From positions 32,001-96,000 of the forward strand of contig CAVQSP010000004.1 in the NCBI GenBank assembly GCA_963715985.1: 64,000 nt of DNA. The letters run 5' to 3'. Shown here in pieces: positions 5,593-34,927 of this stretch. Each line of letters begins with the position of its first letter. Position 1 is the stretch's first letter. The notes under the pieces were generated by a model. That model was not told where the DNA came from. It searched no databases and worked only from the letters and a program-made list of their open reading frames with translations. Made by a program: the position numbers and the translations under genes. This stretch comes from an uncultured Thermoleophilia bacterium (GTDB taxonomy: Bacteria; Actinomycetota; Thermoleophilia; UBA2241).

Positions 5593-6279
5593 TTACGCTT
5601 CGACTGCCTCCACGCGGTTGCGCAGCACGCCGATGCCCTCGACCTCGACCTCCACGACGTCCCCCGGCTTCATCGAGAGCTTGGGGTCGCGGAACACGCC
5701 GACGCCGGCGGGCGTGCCCGTGAGGATCAGGTCGCCGGGCAGCAGGGTGAGCACGTGCGAGACGAACGAGACGAGCTCACGCACGGGGAAGATGAGGTCG
5801 CCGGTGCGCCCGTCCTGAAGGGTCTCGCCGTTCAGCCGCTGGGTGACGCGCAGGTCGGCGGCGTCGCCGAGCTCGGCGACGGGCACGAGGTGCGGACCGA
5901 TGGGGCAGAAGCTGTCGTACGTCTTGCCGCGGAACCACTGGCGGTCGCCGAACTGCGCGTCGCGGGCGCTCACGTCGTTGCCGCAGGTGTAGCCGTGGAC
6001 GGCAGCGAGCGCCTCGCCGGCCGAGACCTTGTGCGTCTCCCGGCCGATGACGACCGCGAGCTCGGCCTCCGAGTCCACGTGGCCGATGCCCTCGGGCATC
6101 AGGATGGGCTCGCCGTCGCCGCACAGCGCGGTGGCGAACTTGGCGAACAGGATCGGCGACGTGGGGAGGTTCTTCACGCCTCCCTCGGCGGCGTGGTCCT
6201 TGTAGTTCAGTCCCACGCAGATGACCTTGGGCTCGGTGCGCCCGAAGCGCTCCAGCCAGTCGGCGCGCCAGTCGTACAT
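5593..6279 (-). CDS. Fumarylacetoacetate hydrolase family protein
   Basis: CVGLNY, DSEAELAVVIG, NDVSARD, GDLILTGTPAGVG; GAGGAG RBS. Confidence 0.92.
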   Translation of the reverse strand: MYDWRADWLERFGRTEPKVICVGLNYKDHAAEGGVKNLPTSPILFAKFATALCGDGEPILMPEGIGHVDSEAELAVVIGRETHKVSAGEALAAVHGYTCGNDVSARDAQFGDRQWFRGKTYDSFCPIGPHLVPVAELGDAADLRVTQRLNGETLQDGRTGDLIFPVRELVSFVSHVLTLLPGDLILTGTPAGVGVFRDPKLSMKPGDVVEVEVEGIGVLRNRVEAVEA

Positions 6280-6289
6280 CGTGCTCCTC

Positions 6290-7689
6290 TCAGGCGGTCT
6301 GACGGGTCGTGGCGGCCTCGGCCGCCTTCGCGGCCGGGGCGGCCGCTGCGATCCGGCCCTCGGCCGCGAGCGCCTCCGCGACGATCTCCACGGTGTGGCA
6401 CACGCGCTGGCCGCGGCCGCGCCGCCGCAGGCTGTCGGTGAGCTGCATGCGGCAGCCGGGGCAGCTGGTGACGACCACCTCGGCGCCCGTGGCGTCGATC
6501 TCCGCGGCCTTGCGGGCGCCGATCTTGTCCGCCAGCCCCGGATGCGTGAGCAGGAACGACCCTGCGCCGCCGCAGCACACCTCGGTGGAGGCCAGCTCGG
6601 CGAGCTCAAGGCCGGCCACGCGGCTGATGAGCTCGCGCGGCTGCGCGCGGACGCCCTGGCCGCGAGCCAGGTGGCAGGGGTCGTGGTAGGTGACGCGGGT
6701 GCCGGCCGGGGCGACGGCGGCCGGCAGCTCGACGCGTTCGGCGAGGTACTCCGTGGCGTCAAGGGCGCGGGCCGCGAGCCGCTCCGCACGCGGCCCCCAG
6801 ACGGGATCGCCGGCAAGCAGCCTGGGGATGAAGTGCTTGAGCGCGGACCCGCACGTGGGACAGGCCGTGAGCACGGCCTCGCCGTCCAGGCTGCCCAGAG
6901 TCCTTACGGTGGCCCGCGCCAGGTCGCGGCGCAGAGCGCTCGTCGCCGTGCATCAGCATGGGCACGCCGCAGCAGGTGGTTCTCAGGCGGCAGCGTGGCC
7001 TCGACCTGCGCCGCGCCGAGCGCGCTCACGAGGGCGCGACCGATCTCGGGATAGACGTAGGTGATCATGCAGCCGGGGTAGAAGACGACGCGGCCGCGTG
7101 CCTGCGCGCGCGCGGCCGGCCGAGCCGTCCGCCGGCGCCCAGCGGCCGGGCCGGCAGCCTGGGCAGCACCGGCCGCCGCTCGCGCGGCACCGGCAGGCGG
7201 GCCACGCCGAGGTCCTCTTCGGGGCCCGCCGCGAACGCCAGTCCCTGGAGCTTCGCGGCCGCGGCGGCGCCCGCTTTGAGCACGCGCGGACGCTTGACGG
7301 CGGCGAAGATGGCGCCCGCCGCGGGCGACACGCCCCGCCGCCGCACGACCTCCGCGCGCGCCGCCAGGATGATGTCGTCCAGGCGGATGCCGGACGGGCA
7401 GGCGTCCACGCAGGCGGTGCAGGTGAGGCAGAGGTCGAGCTGGCGCGCGACGTCCTCGTCGGGTTCGAGCTCGCCGCTGAGCAGGGCCTGCGCGATCACC
7501 ACCTTGCCGCGCGCTACGGCAGGCTCGCGGCGGACCTGGTAGTAGACGGGGCACACGGCCTGGCAGTTGCCGCAGCGCATGCACGCGTCGATGTGCCTCG
7601 CGCAGGGCGGCGAGGCCGGAGGCATCCGCCGGCTCACCGGGGTTCGCGCCGCGACGCGGCTCACCCGGCTTCACGTCGCCGGTCGTCAC
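6290..7689 (-). CDS. glcF: Fe-S subunit of a glycolate/lactate-type oxidoreductase (GlcF-like), with several apparent frameshifts
   Basis: CMRCGNCQAVCP, CLTCTACVDACP, FYPGC, CCG, YHDPCHL, CCGGAG and TSCPGC spread over about four frames. Confidence 0.8.
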
Positions 7690-28703: not shown

Positions 28704-29462
28704 GTGCAGATCGCGGGAGCGAGGATCCTGATCACCGGCGCGGCGCGCGGCCTGGGGCGGACGTTCGCCCTGGACCTGGCGGCGGCCGGCGCGCGAGTGG
28801 GTGTGTGCGACGTGGACCCGGCCGGTCTGGCCGAGCTGGAGAAGGAGACGGCCGGGCTTGAGCCGGCCATCTGGACGCAGACGGCCGACGTTGCCGACGA
28901 GGCGAGCGTCGAGGCCCTGTTCGCCGGGTTCGTGGAGCACGCCGGCGGCATCGACGCGGTCATCAACAACGCCGGCCTGAACCGCGACGGCCTGCTCGTG
29001 CGCAAGACCGACGAGGGCGTGCAGAAACTCTCGCTGGCCAAGTGGCAGGCCGTGATCGACGTGGACCTCACCGGCGTCTTTCTATGCTCCCGTGAGGCGG
29101 CCTGGCACATGGTGCGGCAGGGCACGGGCGGCGTGATCCTCTCGATCTCGTCGCTCTCGTGGCTGGGCAACGTCGGCCAGACCAACTACAGCGCCGCCAA
29201 AGCGGGCGTGGTCGGCATGACCCGTACGTGGGGCATGGAGCTGGCCCGGTACGGCATCCGCGCGGCGGCCATCGCGCCCGGGCTCACGGCCACGGAGATG
29301 GCCCAGGCCATGCCGGAGGAGGCGCGGCGCAAGCTCACCGACGCCATCCCCTTGCGCCGCATGGCCGACCCGGCGGAGATCGCCCTCACCGTACGGTTCG
29401 TCCTCGAGAACGACTTCATCAACGGCCGCGTGATCCCCGTGGACGGTGGCCTGAGGCTCTGA
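28704..29462 (+). CDS. SDR, FabG-like 3-oxoacyl reductase
   Basis: TGAARGLG, NNAG, GNVGQTNYSAAKAG. Confidence 0.9.
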   Translation: MQIAGARILITGAARGLGRTFALDLAAAGARVGVCDVDPAGLAELEKETAGLEPAIWTQTADVADEASVEALFAGFVEHAGGIDAVINNAGLNRDGLLVRKTDEGVQKLSLAKWQAVIDVDLTGVFLCSREAAWHMVRQGTGGVILSISSLSWLGNVGQTNYSAAKAGVVGMTRTWGMELARYGIRAAAIAPGLTATEMAQAMPEEARRKLTDAIPLRRMADPAEIALTVRFVLENDFINGRVIPVDGGLRL

Positions 29463-29547
29463 GCAGGCCCCTCGCCTGCGCGCACGAACGACACCACCGG
29501 GCGAAGCCGGAGGAGCTCTGCCCGACCGAGAGACTACGGAGGTTGAG

Positions 29548-31616
29548 ATGGGTGCGGTGAACATCGACCCGGCACGTTTCGCGCGTCTTCTGGACCCGCG
29601 TTCGATCGCCGTCTTCGGCGGGGCGCAGGCCCAGGAGGTGATCCGTCAGTGCGACCTCATGGGCTACGAGGGCGAGATCTGGCCGGTCCATCCCAAGAAG
29701 GACGAGATCATGGGCCGCGCGGTGTACCGCTCGGTCGACGAGCTGCCGGGCAGCCCCGACGCGGCCTACGTCGGGGTGAACCGCAACCTCACCATCGACA
29801 TCATCAAAGGACTCGCGGCACTCGATGCGGGCGGCGCGATCTCCTATGCCACCGGCTTCGCTGAGGCAGGTCAGGAGGGTTCCGAGCTGACGCAGCAACT
29901 CCTGGAGGCGTCGGGAGAGATGGCCCTCGTCGGGCCGAACTGCTACGGGCTCCTCAACTACGTCAGCGGGGCCATGCTGTGGCCGGACCAGCAGGGCGGC
30001 CGCCGCGTGGACAAGGGCGTCGCCATCATCACGATGTCGTCCAACGTGGGCTTCAACCTCACGATGCAGCGGCGCGGCCTCCCCATCGCCTACATGGTCT
30101 CGCTCGGTAACCGCATCAAGTTCGACCTGCACGATGCCATCAAGATCTTCGCGCAGCAGGAGCGGGTCACGGCCATCGGCCTCTACCTCGAGACGATGCC
30201 CGACCCCAAGACGTTCCAGGAGGCCGTCGACGTCGCCCGCCGGCTGGGCAAGCCGATCGTGGCCATCAAGACGGGCCGCTCGCAGGTCGCGCAGAAGGTC
30301 GTGATGTCGCACACCGCCTCGCTGGCCGGGTCCGACGTGCTCGTCAGCGCGCTGTTCGAGCGTCTCGGCGTGGCACGCGTGGACTCTCTTGAGGCGTTGA
30401 TCGAGGCGCTCAAGGTGCTGCACGTCCTCGGCCCGCTCCAGGGCGGCCGCATCGCCGCCATGAGCACGTCCGGCGGCGACCTCACGCTGGTCGCCGACGC
30501 GCTCACCGCGGGCCTGTCGCTGCCGCCGCTGTCGCCCGCGGCGACGGAACGGCTGCGCGCGGTCGTGCACGAGCGCGTGGTCCCGGCCAACCCCTTCGAC
30601 TACCAGATGTTCAGCTGGGACGACGACGACGCCAACGCCGCGATCTTCGGCGCTCTCCTGTCCGACGATTTCGACGTCGCGCTGTGCCTGCTCGACTACC
30701 CGCGGGCAGACAAGTGCGACCAGTCGACCTGGGGCGGGGCCGAGCGGGGCTTCGTGCGGGCCGCCAAAGACACGGGCACCAAGGGTGCGGTGATGGCGAC
30801 CTTCGCGGACACGATCTCGGAGCCCGTGGCCGAGCGCCTGATGGAGGACGGCGTGGCCATGCTGGCCGGCATCGACGCCGGGGTCGCGGGTGTCAAGGCG
30901 GCGGTGGACATCGGCGCCGCCTGGCGACGGCCGCCGGCGCAGCCGCTGCTCACCGACCCCGGCCGGCAGAGCGGGGGCCCGGTCAGCGTCCTGGACGAGG
31001 CCGCATCCAAGCGCCTGCTGGCCGAGGCCGGCGTGCACGTGCCGGCGTCGCGGACCGTCCGCACGGCGGCCGAGGCGGTCGCGGCCGCCGAGGAGCTGGG
31101 CTTCCCCGTGGTCGTCAAGGCGCTGGGCATCGCGCACAAGTCCGACGTGGGCGGCGTACGCCTGGATCTGCGCAGCGCGGAGGAAGTGAGCGAGGCCATG
31201 TCCATGATGTCGGGCCTCGCCGACGCCTACCTCGTGGAGAGGATGGTCGAGGGCGCGGTCGCGGAGATCATCGTGGGCGTGGCCCGGGACCCGCAGTTCG
31301 GCCCGTACCTCGTGGTCGGCGGTGGCGGGATCCTCGTGGAGCTGATGAAGGACAGCGCGTCGCTGCTGCTGCCGGTCACCAGGGAAGCACGTCCTGCAGG
31401 CCCTGGACGGGCTGCAGTGCGCGCCGCTCCTCAACTGCTTCAGGGGCTGCCCGCAGGCCGACCTCAACGCCGCCGCCGACGCGGTCCTGGCGGTCGCCGG
31501 GCCTCGTGGAGAAGGACCCTTCCGCCATCGCGGAGCTCGACATCAACCCGCTGCTGGTCCTCGAGGAGGGCCGCGGCGCGGTCGCCGCCGACGCTCTGAT
31601 CAGACTCAACGCGTGA
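29548..31616 (+). CDS. ADP-forming acyl-CoA synthetase (CoA-binding plus ATP-grasp), frameshifts near 31388 and 31500
   Basis: PRSIAV, GPNCYG, SHTASLAG phospho-His, HKSDVGGV, ELDINPL in a shifted frame. Confidence 0.88.
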
Positions 31617-31662
31617 CCCTGGAGCGAACCGCCCGGCCCGGCCGGGGAAAGGACCGCAGCAC

Positions 31663-33081
31663 ATGAGCAGCGACGGCATCGAGCAGAGGATCATCGAGAG
31701 GGCGAAGGAGGAGGGCGCGGCGCTGGCCGGTATCGCGCGCATCGCCGACCTCAAGAACGGCCCCTCGTACGCCACCTACGACGCGAACCCCTTCTACCCC
31801 GAGTACGAGGGCGTGGAGTGGAAGGACGAGTACAAGTCGGTCCTGGTCTGGGGGCTGGCGCACCCGGCGTCCGAGCCGGTGCTCGACTGGTGGAGCCTGA
31901 AGGTCAAGGGCTTCACCCCAGGGAACCGCGAGCTGGCGGCGCAGTCCAAGCGCTTGCGCACGTGGATGAACGAAGAGCTCGGGATCGGGGCGCTCTCCCT
32001 CCCGTACCAGATCGAGTACGGCGGCGCGTTCCTCAAGGACGCCGCCGTCATGGCCGGCCTCGGCGTGATCGGCCGCAACAACCTCGTGGTCACGCCGCAG
32101 TATGGCCCCCGCATCCGCTGGCGGGGGATCTTCATGGAGGCGGAGCTGGAGCCCACGGGTCCACTCACGGACTTCGACCCGTGCGGCCCGTGCGAGCGGC
32201 CGTGCTGGGCCGCCTGTCCCAAGGACGCGTTCGGCAGTGGCCGGTACCAGCGGGCACTCTGCAAGCAGTATCAGGACCAGCTCGACGTCGACTTCGAGGT
32301 GATGGACGGGTCGCTGTTCGGGATCGAGGAGCCCAGCAACGTCACGGCCTACTGCCGGGCCTGCGAGCTCGCCTGCCCCGTGGCCCCCGACTTCGACGCC
32401 TCCACGTCGGGGACGACGGCGGGGCTCGCTCCGGCCGGAGAGTCGGCGGCCGACCAGACCCACTTCGTCCTGCCGGACGACCGGCTTGTGGCGTTCACCG
32501 GGCTGCTGGAGGGGAAGTCGCGGCCCATACCGGCGCTGAGCGAGGCCGCCGCCAAGGCCGGCCCGCTCGCCGGCGACGGGGCCGCGTTGCGGCTCGAGGC
32601 TCTCGCCCTGACCGACGACGTGCTCGGCTTCGACTGCGGGGACGCCGGTCTCGACGACTACCTCGTCACGCGCGCCTACGAGGAGCGGCGCGCGGGCAAG
32701 ACCCGGGTGGCCGCGCGCGGCGACCAGGTGGCAGCGTTCTTCAGCCTCAAGGCGTCCAGCGTGAGCCCCCGCCCCGACACGGAGGTCCCGGCCAGCGGCA
32801 AGGGGCCTCGGGACATCCCGGCGATCCTTCTGGCGCGGCTGGCGGTCGATGCGTCCGAGCAGGGCCACGGCCTCGGCGAGGCGATGCTGGTGCAGGCCCT
32901 CCGCCGGTGTCTGGACGCGTCGAGCACGATGTTCGCGCGGGCGGTGCTGGCGTGCGCTCCCACCGATCGGGCGCGCAGCTTCTACGAGAAGTACGGCTTC
33001 GAGCCGTCGCCGACGGATGCGGAGCACCTCGTCCTCCGCATCAAGGACATCCGCAAGAGCCTGGCGCCGCCCCAGGAGTAG
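31663..33081 (+). CDS. Fusion of a QueG-like 4Fe-4S domain, a DUF1778/TacA-like C-terminal segment and a TacT/AtaT-like GNAT
   Basis: AAVMAGLGVIGRNNLVVTPQYGPRIR, CGPCERPCWAACP, CRACELACP; ADQTHFVLPDD..AF..LL....PIPAL; FDCG...LDDYL, IPAILLARLAVD, QGHGLG, FYEKYGF. Confidence 0.8.
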   Translation: MSSDGIEQRIIERAKEEGAALAGIARIADLKNGPSYATYDANPFYPEYEGVEWKDEYKSVLVWGLAHPASEPVLDWWSLKVKGFTPGNRELAAQSKRLRTWMNEELGIGALSLPYQIEYGGAFLKDAAVMAGLGVIGRNNLVVTPQYGPRIRWRGIFMEAELEPTGPLTDFDPCGPCERPCWAACPKDAFGSGRYQRALCKQYQDQLDVDFEVMDGSLFGIEEPSNVTAYCRACELACPVAPDFDASTSGTTAGLAPAGESAADQTHFVLPDDRLVAFTGLLEGKSRPIPALSEAAAKAGPLAGDGAALRLEALALTDDVLGFDCGDAGLDDYLVTRAYEERRAGKTRVAARGDQVAAFFSLKASSVSPRPDTEVPASGKGPRDIPAILLARLAVDASEQGHGLGEAMLVQALRRCLDASSTMFARAVLACAPTDRARSFYEKYGFEPSPTDAEHLVLRIKDIRKSLAPPQE

Positions 33082-33164
33082 GCTGCATCGAGGAGCAGAT
33101 CACCCTCCACGGCGCGGCGCGGACCATGATCGCGCTCGATGGAGTGGAAGGAAGTGAGGCGTCC

Positions 33165-34460
33165 ATGACCGGTGCAGCAGGCATGCGGCTGACGCCCGAC
33201 GAGGAGGCCGTCCTCGCCGGCCGCGACGGTGCGGTCATGCAGAAGGTCATGCGCACCGTCGTGCAGTACGGGGAGGCCCTCGGCGCCGAGAGGCTGGCCG
33301 ACATCTCCGGCGACGGCCACATGGTGATCGCGTACGCGCTTCCGGGCATCGCCCCGTCGCTGGAGATGCTCGAAGAGCTGGTGGCGGCGGGGCTCACGAC
33401 CAAGTTCCCGTTCACCCTCGACCCGCGGCCGCCGCTCGACTACGAGAACTGGGCCCTCGACGGGCAGCAGGTCGCCGTCCTCGACGGCATGTACACGGAC
33501 CAGGCGCGGTATGAGGGCCTGTTGCTCCGGCTGGGCCTGCGCGACGCCGACGCCTTCACCTGCCGGCCGTTTCTCGAGGAGGTCGGCAACGCGCCCAGGA
33601 GGGGTGCCGTCCTCGCCTGGTCGGAGTCTGCCGCCGTCGTCTACGCCAACTCCGTCCTGGGCGCGCGCACCAACCGCAACGGCGCCATCATGGACCTTCT
33701 GTGCAACGTCGCCGGCAAGGTGCCGTTGTCGGGCCTCATCGAGGACGGCGCGCGCCGGGCCACCTGGCGCATCGACGTCACGACCGCCGACCTGCCGCTG
33801 CCCCAAGTGCTGGGGGCGGCCATCGGCAGGCGCGTGCTGGCGGACGTCCCGCTGGTCACCGGCCTCGACCGCTTCTTGAGCGCCGACCTGGACGCGCCCA
33901 CGCTCGACTACCTGAACGAGATGGGCACCGCCTGCGCCACGGCCGGGGCGGTCGGACTCTTCCACGTGGAGGGCGTCACCCCGGAGGCCGTCGAGCAGGG
34001 CCGGCACATCCTGGCCCCCGATCATCGCGAGTACACGATCGACGAGGACGTAGTGGCGGATCTGATCGCCTCGTACCCGGTGCTGTGGCGGGACGGCGGC
34101 GCGCGCCCGGAGAGGTGCTATCTCGGCTGCCCTCACCTGAGCCTCGAGCAGATCTCCTGGTGGGCGCGCAGCATCAGCGCCGCGCTACGCGAGCGGCGGC
34201 AGGCGCGGATCGCGGTGCCCACCACACTGTGCGCCGCGCCGCAGACGCTGGCGCGGCTCGGCGCGGCCGGGAGTGCAAGGCGCGATCTGGAGGCAGCCGG
34301 CGTCATGCTCAGCGCCGGCTGCCCCATGCAGCTCTTCGACTGCGACCTCGCCGCCGGCAGCGCCATCATCACCAACTCCACCAAGCTGCGCACCTACACC
34401 AACGCGAGGTTCTACCCGGACCAGAGGATCGTCGAGATCGTGGTCGGCGGAGAGATCTGA
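33165..34460 (+). CDS. Aconitase X catalytic subunit (DUF521)
   Basis: FTC.PF, AWSES.AVVYANSVLGARTNR, FHVEGVTPEA, GCPHLS, TNSTK. Confidence 0.88.
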   Translation: MTGAAGMRLTPDEEAVLAGRDGAVMQKVMRTVVQYGEALGAERLADISGDGHMVIAYALPGIAPSLEMLEELVAAGLTTKFPFTLDPRPPLDYENWALDGQQVAVLDGMYTDQARYEGLLLRLGLRDADAFTCRPFLEEVGNAPRRGAVLAWSESAAVVYANSVLGARTNRNGAIMDLLCNVAGKVPLSGLIEDGARRATWRIDVTTADLPLPQVLGAAIGRRVLADVPLVTGLDRFLSADLDAPTLDYLNEMGTACATAGAVGLFHVEGVTPEAVEQGRHILAPDHREYTIDEDVVADLIASYPVLWRDGGARPERCYLGCPHLSLEQISWWARSISAALRERRQARIAVPTTLCAAPQTLARLGAAGSARRDLEAAGVMLSAGCPMQLFDCDLAAGSAIITNSTKLRTYTNARFYPDQRIVEIVVGGEI

Positions 34461-34471
34461 GGGCCCGCCGG

Positions 34472-34927
34472 ATGCCCACCACCTTCAAGGGGCGGCCCGT
34501 CCTCGCCGGCAACGTCTCGGGCCAGGCCGTGGTCAGTCACGGCGGCTTCAACATGTACGCGAGCTTCTTCGAGAGCATCCACGTGCCCTCCGGCAAGGCG
34601 GTCTGCGCCGACAGCGGCAACGCCGACCTCTTCGGGCGCGATCTGGCGGGCAAGGTCGTCTGCGTTCCCGGCACGACCGGTTCCACTTCCGGCGGCGCCG
34701 TGTGGCAGCGTCTGGTCAGGATGGGGAACGCTCCGAGGGCCATGCTCTTCTCCGGCGGGATCGACTCGCTGGCGGCCGGCGGACTCATCGTCGCCGACCT
34801 CTGGGCCGGCACGCGGATCGTGGTCGTCGATCGCCTGGGCGATGCGTTTCTGGACACCGTCGAGCACGGCGACACGATCACGATCCAGGAGGACGGCCTG
34901 GTCGCGATCGAGCGCGCGAGCACGTAG
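34472..34927 (+). CDS. Aconitase X swivel subunit (DUF126)
   Basis: GR.V..G.V.G.AVVS, L.G..LAGK, GST; adjacent to DUF521. Confidence 0.85.
   Translation: MPTTFKGRPVLAGNVSGQAVVSHGGFNMYASFFESIHVPSGKAVCADSGNADLFGRDLAGKVVCVPGTTGSTSGGAVWQRLVRMGNAPRAMLFSGGIDSLAAGGLIVADLWAGTRIVVVDRLGDAFLDTVEHGDTITIQEDGLVAIERAST

Follow-up and report, generated by a model that had tools for sequence, protein, structure and literature searches.

A putatively domesticated TacA-TacT module at the C-terminus of a QueG-like cobalamin/Fe-S protein in a wetland Thermoleophilia bacterium

Toxin-antitoxin (TA) modules of type II are usually regarded as selfish or defensive two-gene units and, to our knowledge, little has been recorded of what happens to them once a host gene has captured them. 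Among the GNAT/DUF1778 systems (TacAT, AtaRT, KacAT, and GmvAT), the toxin-wrapping region of the antitoxin KacA has been described with the order betaB-alphaC-alphaD (PMC6698736). QueG of Bacillus subtilis comprises a cobalamin-binding domain (residues 2-189), a ferredoxin domain (190-256) and, at 257-385 (Leu257-Leu385), a HEAT-like domain that binds RNA (PMC5175355). Here we report the analysis of 64,000 nucleotides (nt) of contig CAVQSP010000004.1 (assembly GCA_963715985.1; this whole stretch is called the window below) from an uncultured wetland Thermoleophilia bacterium whose genome is 88.8% complete, in which a single open reading frame (ORF), P0001, joins a QueG-like core to a segment resembling the toxin-binding half of a TacA antitoxin and to a TacT-type GNAT. 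With a confidence only a little better than even, we read this ORF as a metabolic cobalamin/Fe-S protein whose C-terminal extension is a captured and domesticated type II TA module, which would form a cis-capped accessory domain that binds coenzyme A (CoA) thioesters or weakly transfers acyl groups.

The preliminary description of this DNA had claimed an uninterrupted ORF of 472 amino acids (aa) made of a QueG-like core, the C-terminal half of TacA and a TacT-type GNAT, and all three parts were recovered here at the positions given in Table 1. The N-terminus is common to all homologues, a purine-rich stretch lies 8-9 nt 5' of the ATG, and the limits first proposed for the antitoxin-like segment (32446-32556) and for the toxin domain (from 32587) were right within a few residues. 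Among the best 120 of 192 matches in the protein search there were at least 51 further full-length homologues of 456-488 aa, with 97-100% query coverage and 62-86% identity, the others being seven partial sequences and 61 proteins of 259-281 aa that match the N-terminal half only. P0001 and the 51 full-length homologues constitute the family set (n = 52) used for all residue counts. The same architecture was also found in nine species-level genomes, and intact fusion ORFs of 465-487 aa are present in seven species genomes.

A lost stop codon or a frameshift error merging separate genes was weighed, as the neighbouring acyl-CoA synthetase gene in the same assembly contains two single-base insertions, 112 bp apart at about 31387 and 31499, which split it into three frames corresponding to aa 1-613, 613-650, and 652-687 of the L002 orthologue. 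Independent contigs that cover one or other position all have one base fewer there, so these +1 frameshifts are most likely assembly errors rather than marks of a pseudogene. For the fusion itself, however, Logan contigs of four other runs agree with 31663-33081 without a single insertion or deletion, and both junctions are crossed without an indel, one contig spanning 31797-32600 and another 32208-33086 with 0 gaps each. The gap-free contigs, the full-length homologues from several sources and the unbroken ORFs in species genomes refute the artefact reading, to which we leave a practically negligible probability.

The C-terminal domain belongs with the tRNA-acetylating toxins by several measures. 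Three Pfam GNAT families matched at aa ~340-449 above their cut-offs (Acetyltransf_7, 33.4 bits; Acetyltransf_10, 25.8 bits; Acetyltransf_1, 25.9 bits), and comparison of aa 306-466 with the sequences of the Protein Data Bank (PDB) placed TacT first (7f36, E 2.4e-18; 5fvj, E 3e-18), with KacT and AtaT at about 1e-9. In structure comparisons the domain gave VIA-align Z scores of 16.2-19.2 to TacT1-3, AtaT, AtaT2, KacT, and GmvT (root-mean-square deviation, rmsd, 1.7-2.8; 143-168 residues aligned) against at most 11.4 for generic GNATs, and TacT was also top-ranked by Foldseek (E 4e-12). Identity to free-standing toxins of ~169 aa is 50-63%. The acetyl-CoA loop, reported earlier as an intact QGHGLG motif, is indeed present as Q400-G405 and is conserved in the family (Q400 in 50, G401 in 47, G403 in 47, and G405 in 51 of 52 members), the pattern applied being R/Q-x-x-G-x-A/G (PMC7180214).

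The origin of the linker became visible only by comparison with the antitoxins of the closest free toxins, after searches with the linker alone (63 or 71 aa) had given no match in Pfam, NCBIfam or the PDB. A family profile (A1) likewise retrieved no TacA chain among its 43 PDB matches, and the Pfam model PF08681 (gathering score 21 bits) did not match the window protein at E <= 1. Of 80 loci of the closest free-standing toxins, 75 carry an ORF of 60-140 aa that ends at the toxin start, and the four such ORFs tested (loci L057-L060) reach 69-79 bits on PF08681. Residues 240-316 of the window protein matched 44 of these 75 antitoxin ORFs at E <= 10, 11 of them even at E < 1e-3, the best matches showing 46% identity over 52 aa (2e-12, L059), 50% (2e-11, L058), and 44% over 64 aa (3e-11), with E-values that refer to the small database of 75 ORFs. 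The alignment joins aa 253-304 to the C-terminal half of TacA1 antitoxins, at 44-50% identity and through the last residues of the antitoxins. Moreover, a hidden Markov model (HMM) of the 75 ORFs matched all 52 fusions and none of 1000 shuffled copies, P0001 itself at E 1.8e-5 over aa 252-302. The DUF1778/TacA likeness proposed in the preliminary description is thereby borne out, and PF08681 agrees with it in part of the family: 19 of the 52 members match at E <= 10, and five of ten members tested singly gave a match, two above the gathering score (P0007, 26.1 bits, profile positions 10-77 of 80; P0059, 34.6 bits, positions 5-64). Both of these are longer-linker relatives, while short-linker forms match profile positions ~40-78 only.

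Equally in line with the preliminary description, no DNA-binding ribbon-helix-helix (RHH) domain is left in the window protein: it lacks the RHH beta-strand and helix 1 and retains only remnants of helix 2, the alignment with the L057 antitoxin reaching back to aa 245 with a gap of five residues. Remnants of both RHH helices, 1 and 2, persist in longer-linker members near the base of the N-domain tree, and the beta-strand is found in none. The AlphaFold2 (AF2) model of the full-length protein, with a mean predicted local distance difference test score (pLDDT) of 69, contains a strand at 267-270 and helices at 272-282 and 290-297, a block with pLDDT 86-92 that sits between a disordered spacer (aa 241-263, pLDDT < 50) and the GNAT, and whose order is that of betaB-alphaC-alphaD in KacA. 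Within this segment F278 and S286 are invariant and W275 is present in 50 of 52 members, being Leu in the window, while the spacer varies across the family from 17 to 40 residues.

The N-terminal part had been called QueG/dehalogenase-like with two Fe-S motifs, and this description holds. The AF2 model of aa 1-246 (mean pLDDT 94; predicted template modelling score, pTM, 0.91) aligned with residues 2-255 of B. subtilis QueG at VIA Z 19.1 (rmsd 3.0, 212 residues aligned), followed by the reductive dehalogenases (RDH) PceA (16.4) and NpRdhA (15.4) and by MMACHC/CblC (~10). Since the alignment covers QueG 2-255, the window core corresponds to the first two domains of QueG and ends where the third starts. 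The eight cysteines expected to hold the clusters (C174, C177, C181, C185, C200, C231, C234, and C238) are invariant in all 52 members and follow the QueG motif (PMC5175355), save for X3 instead of X2 between the second and the third Cys. Sequence profiles gave weak but specific matches at aa 125-240 (QueG TIGR00276, 29.8 bits; RDH TIGR02486, 30.3 bits), together with Fer4_16 on aa 174-240 under its cut-off (E 0.0034) and QueG 5d6s on aa 121-245 in the PDB sequence search (E 1.1e-8). A profile of 61 family members reached E 1.3e-16 with Streptococcus thermophilus QueG 5d6s (profile positions 7-233), 1.4e-12 with RDH and 3.8e-11 with B. subtilis QueG.

Nevertheless, this part is not QueG itself, as judged from sequence. 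The TIGR00276 cut-off of 200 bits was not reached, the core being the weakest of seven QueG-model matches in its own genome, and the HEAT-like tRNA-binding domain is absent: stand-alone orthologues stop ~20 aa past the last Cys, and in the fusion the TacA-like segment and the GNAT take that place. As the seven QueG/RDH-model matches of this 88.8%-complete genome (L137-L143) did not exceed 75.3 bits, no canonical queG was found in it. A scan of 1.84 billion representative sequences returned 1628 matches at E <= 1e-3, 91 of which reached E <= 1e-30, mostly proteins of 190-300 aa, and the fusions are among the few long ones. In one distant N-domain relative, P0381 (383 aa), the C-terminal place of the TacA-like segment and the GNAT is taken by a NUDIX domain (PF00293, 44.2 bits, aa 254-361).

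Both halves of the fusion have close free-standing counterparts. On a quick tree of the N-domain (52 fusion and 61 stand-alone rows), fusions and stand-alones lie on the two sides of one branch with a Shimodaira-Hasegawa-like approximate likelihood ratio test (SH-aLRT) support of 100. On a quick tree of the GNAT (18 fusion and 73 free rows) the fusions cluster together with SH-aLRT 100; the inner branch that leads to them, of 0.58 changes per column, is the longest, and their sister group (98) consists of five free toxins, L057-L060 plus L062, from metagenome-assembled genomes (MAGs) of Thermoleophilia/Actinomycetes; the upstream ORF of L062, as extracted, looked spurious. Canonical operons of four genomes (G189, G177, G277, and G312) are colinear with aa 252-467 of the query with one stop inside, and at L059 the antitoxin stop and the toxin start share an 11-nt overlap, read in different frames, and a one-base indel would therefore fuse tacA and tacT. 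The stand-alone proteins end ~20 aa after the last Cys with a conserved tail of their own, which the fusions replace right after CPV. Judged from these alignments and quick trees, the module goes back to a local tacA-tacT operon, the fusions are one clade, and the enzyme core is orthologous to the stand-alone protein of ~260 aa.

The species-representative genomes contain nine fusion loci, all in Thermoleophilia or 'Actinomycetes' MAGs, and 39 stand-alone loci in Desulfobacterales and other 'delta' lineages, Anaerolineae/Chloroflexota, Acidobacteriota, and one Thermoleophilia. Of 401 genomes sampled from the class, nine have the fusion intact, that of the window included, and three have it partial or broken; all 12 belong to one family (f1), with 10 of 50 genomes in genus g1 and 2 of 11 in genus g2. 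In a search for the linker plus GNAT among longer proteins, all 44 matches were members of the fusion family with the full module and no other fused architecture appeared, which is weak evidence with 8000 candidates scored. The stand-alone orthologue of another Thermoleophilia MAG (L024) has no tacAT downstream and offers no pre-fusion intermediate, no free TacA was found in the 88.8%-complete genome of the window (best PF08681 E 0.32), and the GC content of linker and GNAT (0.74-0.76) falls inside the local range (0.67-0.78) and is uninformative on origin. Elsewhere in this genome, contig C21 (about 121142-121336; L051 1495..1896, minus strand) carries what is left of a second TacT-like GNAT, a C-terminal piece that is 54% identical to residues 105-169 of the domain query, adjoining genes that resemble, by eye from their translations, higBA and a PIN-domain toxin.

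The state of the toxin was assessed by comparing the 52 fusions with 73 free toxins, seven of the 80 loci having been left out because their ORFs fell outside 140-200 aa. It is known that a Tyr-to-Phe change at the general-acid position abolishes toxicity. Tyr441 of the window protein aligns with Tyr in 9ilr and with the Phe of the Y-to-F crystal sequence 7f36 (residue 140 by count), a TacT entry which we take to carry Y140F. The corresponding Phe mutants AtaT Y144F and KacT Y145F have been used for structural and binding work (PMC6698736, PMC7180214, PDB titles). At this position 72 of the 73 free toxins have Tyr, whereas the fusions have Tyr in 16, Phe in 32 and Cys in 4, so that the Tyr is missing from 36 of 52 members, with at least five separate replacements on the quick tree. 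At position 431, His in every free toxin, the fusions are hypervariable and only four of them keep it, the window having Cys; position 424 is Gly in all 73 free toxins and Phe in all 52 fusions, the window included; Glu at 447 is likewise invariant in the free toxins and present in 21 fusions, among them the window. With V375, Q411, and A453 in place of a near-invariant Arg, a near-invariant Asp and an invariant Pro, the window protein keeps two of seven diagnostic free-toxin residues (Y441 and E447). Median net charge is +2 in the free toxins and -1.5 in the fusions.

These counts bear on whether the protein is still a functional single-chain TA system, in which an active aminoacyl-tRNA acetyltransferase is held off in cis by the TacA segment and released by the redox or corrinoid state of the N-domain, by proteolysis of the spacer, or by a phage or stress signal. 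Such an arrangement has precedents in the fused systems EzeT (PMC4826407) and CapRel (PMC9712102), and the activity of the TacA-TacT complex may be tuned by acetylation of TacA (PMC5449658). The window protein would be equipped for it, with Tyr441 and the Q-x-x-G-x-G loop kept, the entire neutralising strand-helix-helix present and conserved, and a spacer that is modelled with low confidence and is probably flexible. However, most members of the family have lost the general-acid Tyr, the invariant His is Cys in the window, and His and Tyr are both retained in only two of 52 members (P0006 and P0007). The fusion also gave no match in PADLOC, nor did the synthetase, and the locus is a conserved metabolic operon rather than a defence island. 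We therefore consider a working single-chain TA system unlikely. The intact auto-inhibited toxin of the preliminary description is weakened accordingly: its Tyr and its acetyl-CoA loop stand, but most of the diagnostic residues do not.

The same erosion could be expected of a functionless passenger, an inactivated TA remnant that was captured in frame by accident, is harmless and decays slowly. Stand-alone orthologues do without such a tail, the spacer is variable in length, and three of the 12 genomes have broken or partial copies (G206, G351, and G371). The evolutionary rates speak on both sides. Nei-Gojobori (NG86) medians of the ratio of nonsynonymous to synonymous differences (pN/pS), from 28 pairs of eight coding sequences (CDS) that are not fully independent, were 0.21 for the N-domain, 0.44 for the spacer, 0.47 for the TacA-like segment and 0.35 for the GNAT, so that the module lies above the N-domain. 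Nonetheless, among six Phe-bearing CDS without the Tyr (L002-L007; three pairs summed, likewise not fully independent), pN/pS is significantly below 1 both in the GNAT (0.36-0.37, binomial P about 1e-14) and in the TacA-like segment (0.38-0.44, P 1e-3 to 6e-3). Besides, R392, R415, R426, H455, and D462, invariant in the toxin family, are unchanged in all 52 fusions, and the full module is kept in all 44 long homologues mentioned above. The broken copies themselves are a contig edge (G371), a locus with two +1 frameshifts (L009, taken as that of G351) and a gene in three pieces with one TGA (G206), and frameshift errors of this kind are demonstrated in the window assembly. Since the pattern of L009 resembles that of the window's synthetase gene, L009 was not counted as decay; its gene (6001-7397, P0057) is a full-length fusion with frameshifts at about 6925 and 7201. 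All parts of the fusion are thus, as far as codon comparisons can tell, under purifying selection, and a mere passenger is distinctly improbable. The deletion-born relic or singleton envisaged in the preliminary description is contradicted by the conservation of the fusion, by its single clade on the quick trees and by this selection, while its other option, a domesticated acetyltransferase, is the reading that the eroded toxin residues and the maintained module favour.

Table 1. Features of the fusion gene and of its upstream partner in the window
Feature	Position	Strand	Basis
Whole fusion ORF P0001, 472 aa plus stop	31663..33081	+	Uninterrupted in the window; homologues with 62-86% identity
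Cobalamin-binding-type domain, QueG/RdhA superfamily, aa 1-173	31663..32181	+	AF2 model, structure and profile alignments
Ferredoxin-like domain, aa 174-240, 8 Cys, two [4Fe-4S] clusters predicted	32182..32382	+	Cys pattern
Ala/Gly/Pro-rich spacer with degenerate RHH helix 2 remnants, aa 241-263	32383..32451	+	BLASTP, pLDDT
TacA/DUF1778-derived toxin-binding segment, aa 264-300	32452..32562	+	Antitoxin alignment, AF2 secondary structure
TacT/AtaT-type GNAT, aa 307-472	32581..33078	+	PDB TacT E 2.4e-18, structure alignment
Acetyl-CoA loop Q400-G-H-G-L-G405	32860-32877	+	Motif, conserved in the family
General-acid Tyr441	32983-32985	+	Alignment with TacT crystal sequences
ADP-forming acyl-CoA synthetase (CoA_binding_2, Succ_CoA_lig, ATP-grasp_5)	29548..31616	+	Pfam, NCBIfam

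The genomic context is conserved well beyond the fusions. In eight of nine fusion loci and 34 of 39 stand-alone loci (42 of 48 in all), the gene immediately upstream of the QueG-like one encodes an ADP-forming acyl-CoA synthetase, three of the five stand-alone exceptions being without upstream sequence; identity across phyla amounts to 69-77%. The pair as a whole (29548..32400 in the window; L010-L048) retains 60-77% identity, in hosts from the Desulfobacterales, Anaerolineae/Chloroflexota, Acidobacteriota, and Thermoleophilia. Within the window, IorA, IorB, and a short-chain dehydrogenase/reductase (SDR) gene precede the synthetase, the IorAB-SDR block being common to seven of nine fusion loci, and the fusion is followed by genes for AcnX and its swivel subunit, for a methyltransferase of the MttB family and for an Lrp regulator. 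Only in the window and in L009 do the AcnX large and swivel genes (33165..34927 in the window) separate the fusion from the MttB-family gene, which in L002 and L004-L008 comes after the fusion. In some Desulfobacterales loci, nearby ORFs resemble by eye genes for electron transfer flavoprotein (ETF), a 4-hydroxybutyryl-CoA dehydratase-like protein and an AMP-forming ligase. A promoter and terminator scan of 29300-33400 found no promoter-like site, and no terminator between the synthetase and fusion genes, and no RNA holder figures in the list of sequencing runs.

The history that we favour begins with a tacA-tacT operon of a Thermoleophilia/Actinomycetota lineage that was joined in frame behind a compact QueG-like gene. 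The antitoxin dropped its DNA-reading beta-strand and helix 1, with the toxin-binding strand-helix-helix now running straight into the toxin N-terminus. The TacA remnant may permanently cap the GNAT in cis, and the ancestral acetylation of aminoacyl-tRNA would have been attenuated or lost. In its present role, the capped GNAT might be a regulatory or substrate-holding domain that binds acetyl- or acyl-CoA, or weakly transfers acyl groups, for an Fe-S enzyme that would work with the synthetase encoded upstream in an indolepyruvate-oxidoreductase/acyl-CoA cluster. According to the PDB titles of 6gtr and 9ilr, a toxin can hold acetyl-CoA with the antitoxin C-terminus bound, and this, along with the acyl-CoA gene context, leads us to infer a CoA-thioester accessory domain. 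TacT can moreover act on its bound antitoxin, and the TacA-TacT complex may retain an activity that TacA acetylation tunes, as reported for this system (PMC5449658).

Several points weigh against this history. For the putative contact in cis between aa 264-300 and the GNAT surface, the model provides pLDDT and secondary structure, and the high pLDDT of the segment is indirect evidence; the putative role in CoA sensing is drawn from gene context only. The window protein, with Tyr441 and its acetyl-CoA loop, may have residual or conditional acetyltransferase activity. KacA is described as impairing acetyl-CoA binding (PMC6698736), so a cap in cis could also block the binding of CoA. Stand-alone orthologues work without a GNAT, and the appended module is therefore not needed for the core function; its pN/pS (0.37-0.47, from pairs that are not fully independent) is also more relaxed than that of the N-domain (0.20-0.24).

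Two further possibilities would assign the module a more direct part in the chemistry of the core. The TacT-like domain could have been exapted to recruit tRNA or aminoacyl-tRNA to the cobalamin/Fe-S site, which would make the protein a new tRNA-directed reductase. This would suit a core that ends where the RNA-binding domain of QueG begins, and the tRNA binding of TacT-family proteins indicated by the PDB titles of 7f36 and 7chd; in addition, Glu118 and Lys125 align, by our residue count, with QueG Asp134 and Arg141, whose roles are described in PMC5175355. Nevertheless, the net charge of the GNAT has fallen, the partner conserved across phyla is the acyl-CoA synthetase and not a tRNA gene, TacT binds the acceptor end of the tRNA whereas QueG acts on the anticodon, and the stand-alone orthologues have no RNA-binding domain, all of which leaves tRNA recruitment very unlikely. 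A broader version, in which the TA pair was exapted whole as an enzyme domain, the capped GNAT recruiting a substrate or signal, either aminoacyl-tRNA or an acyl-CoA produced by the synthetase next to it, to the cobalamin/Fe-S reductase, or coupling translation control to redox or corrinoid state in the Tyr-bearing members, also seems quite doubtful.

The family provides a natural, dated and stepwise series of dozens of sequences in which the RHH remnants are near-complete in some members and deleted in others, the neutralising segment is always kept, and catalytic residues are lost repeatedly under continuing selection. It thus makes testable whether an antitoxin binding segment can turn into a permanent structural cap, and what use a detoxified tRNA-acetylating GNAT can have. 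Additionally, the analysis brings to light that anaerobes of several phyla share an uncharacterised pair of genes, widespread and very conserved, in which the gene of an ADP-forming acyl-CoA synthetase precedes that of a compact QueG-like cobalamin/Fe-S protein.

Compared with known proteins, the core shares with QueG the cobalamin-binding and two-cluster ferredoxin domains and the eight-Cys motif, but it scores far below the QueG cut-off and has no HEAT-like domain, its family measures ~230-300 aa (the 91 representatives at E <= 1e-30), and its gene is paired with an acyl-CoA synthetase gene and not with queuosine genes. With the reductive dehalogenases PceA and NpRdhA it has the superfamily core in common (Z 15.4-16.4), but it is much shorter and falls far under the TIGR02486 cut-off of 160 bits. 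Pat/YfiQ protein acetyltransferases unite an NDP-forming acyl-CoA synthetase-like module and a GNAT in one protein, the GNAT being outside the TacT clade; the association is similar and is taken as a lead only, as in the window synthetase and GNAT are encoded by neighbouring genes and the GNAT is TA-derived. EzeT (PMC4826407) and CapRel (PMC9712102) also hold a toxin and a neutralising element in one polypeptide, but they have unrelated toxin folds and stand alone, whereas the window protein places a GNAT/DUF1778 pair on a third, metabolic domain. No description of a natural TacA-TacT fusion was found in the literature searched, within which this is the first GNAT/DUF1778 pair met as a single chain. 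Relative to TacA/DUF1778 antitoxins, the fusion keeps the toxin-binding strand-helix-helix and is without the N-terminal RHH DNA-binding domain; because this element is lost, the fusion would not be autoregulated, unlike the GNAT/DUF1778 systems. Overall, its GNAT is a member of the toxin clade of those systems by sequence and by fold, its linker is homologous to the toxin-binding C-terminal region of their antitoxins, and the colinear tacA-tacT order is preserved, but the fusion is one polypeptide behind an enzyme instead of two genes, and residues that are invariant in the free toxins have been replaced in it.

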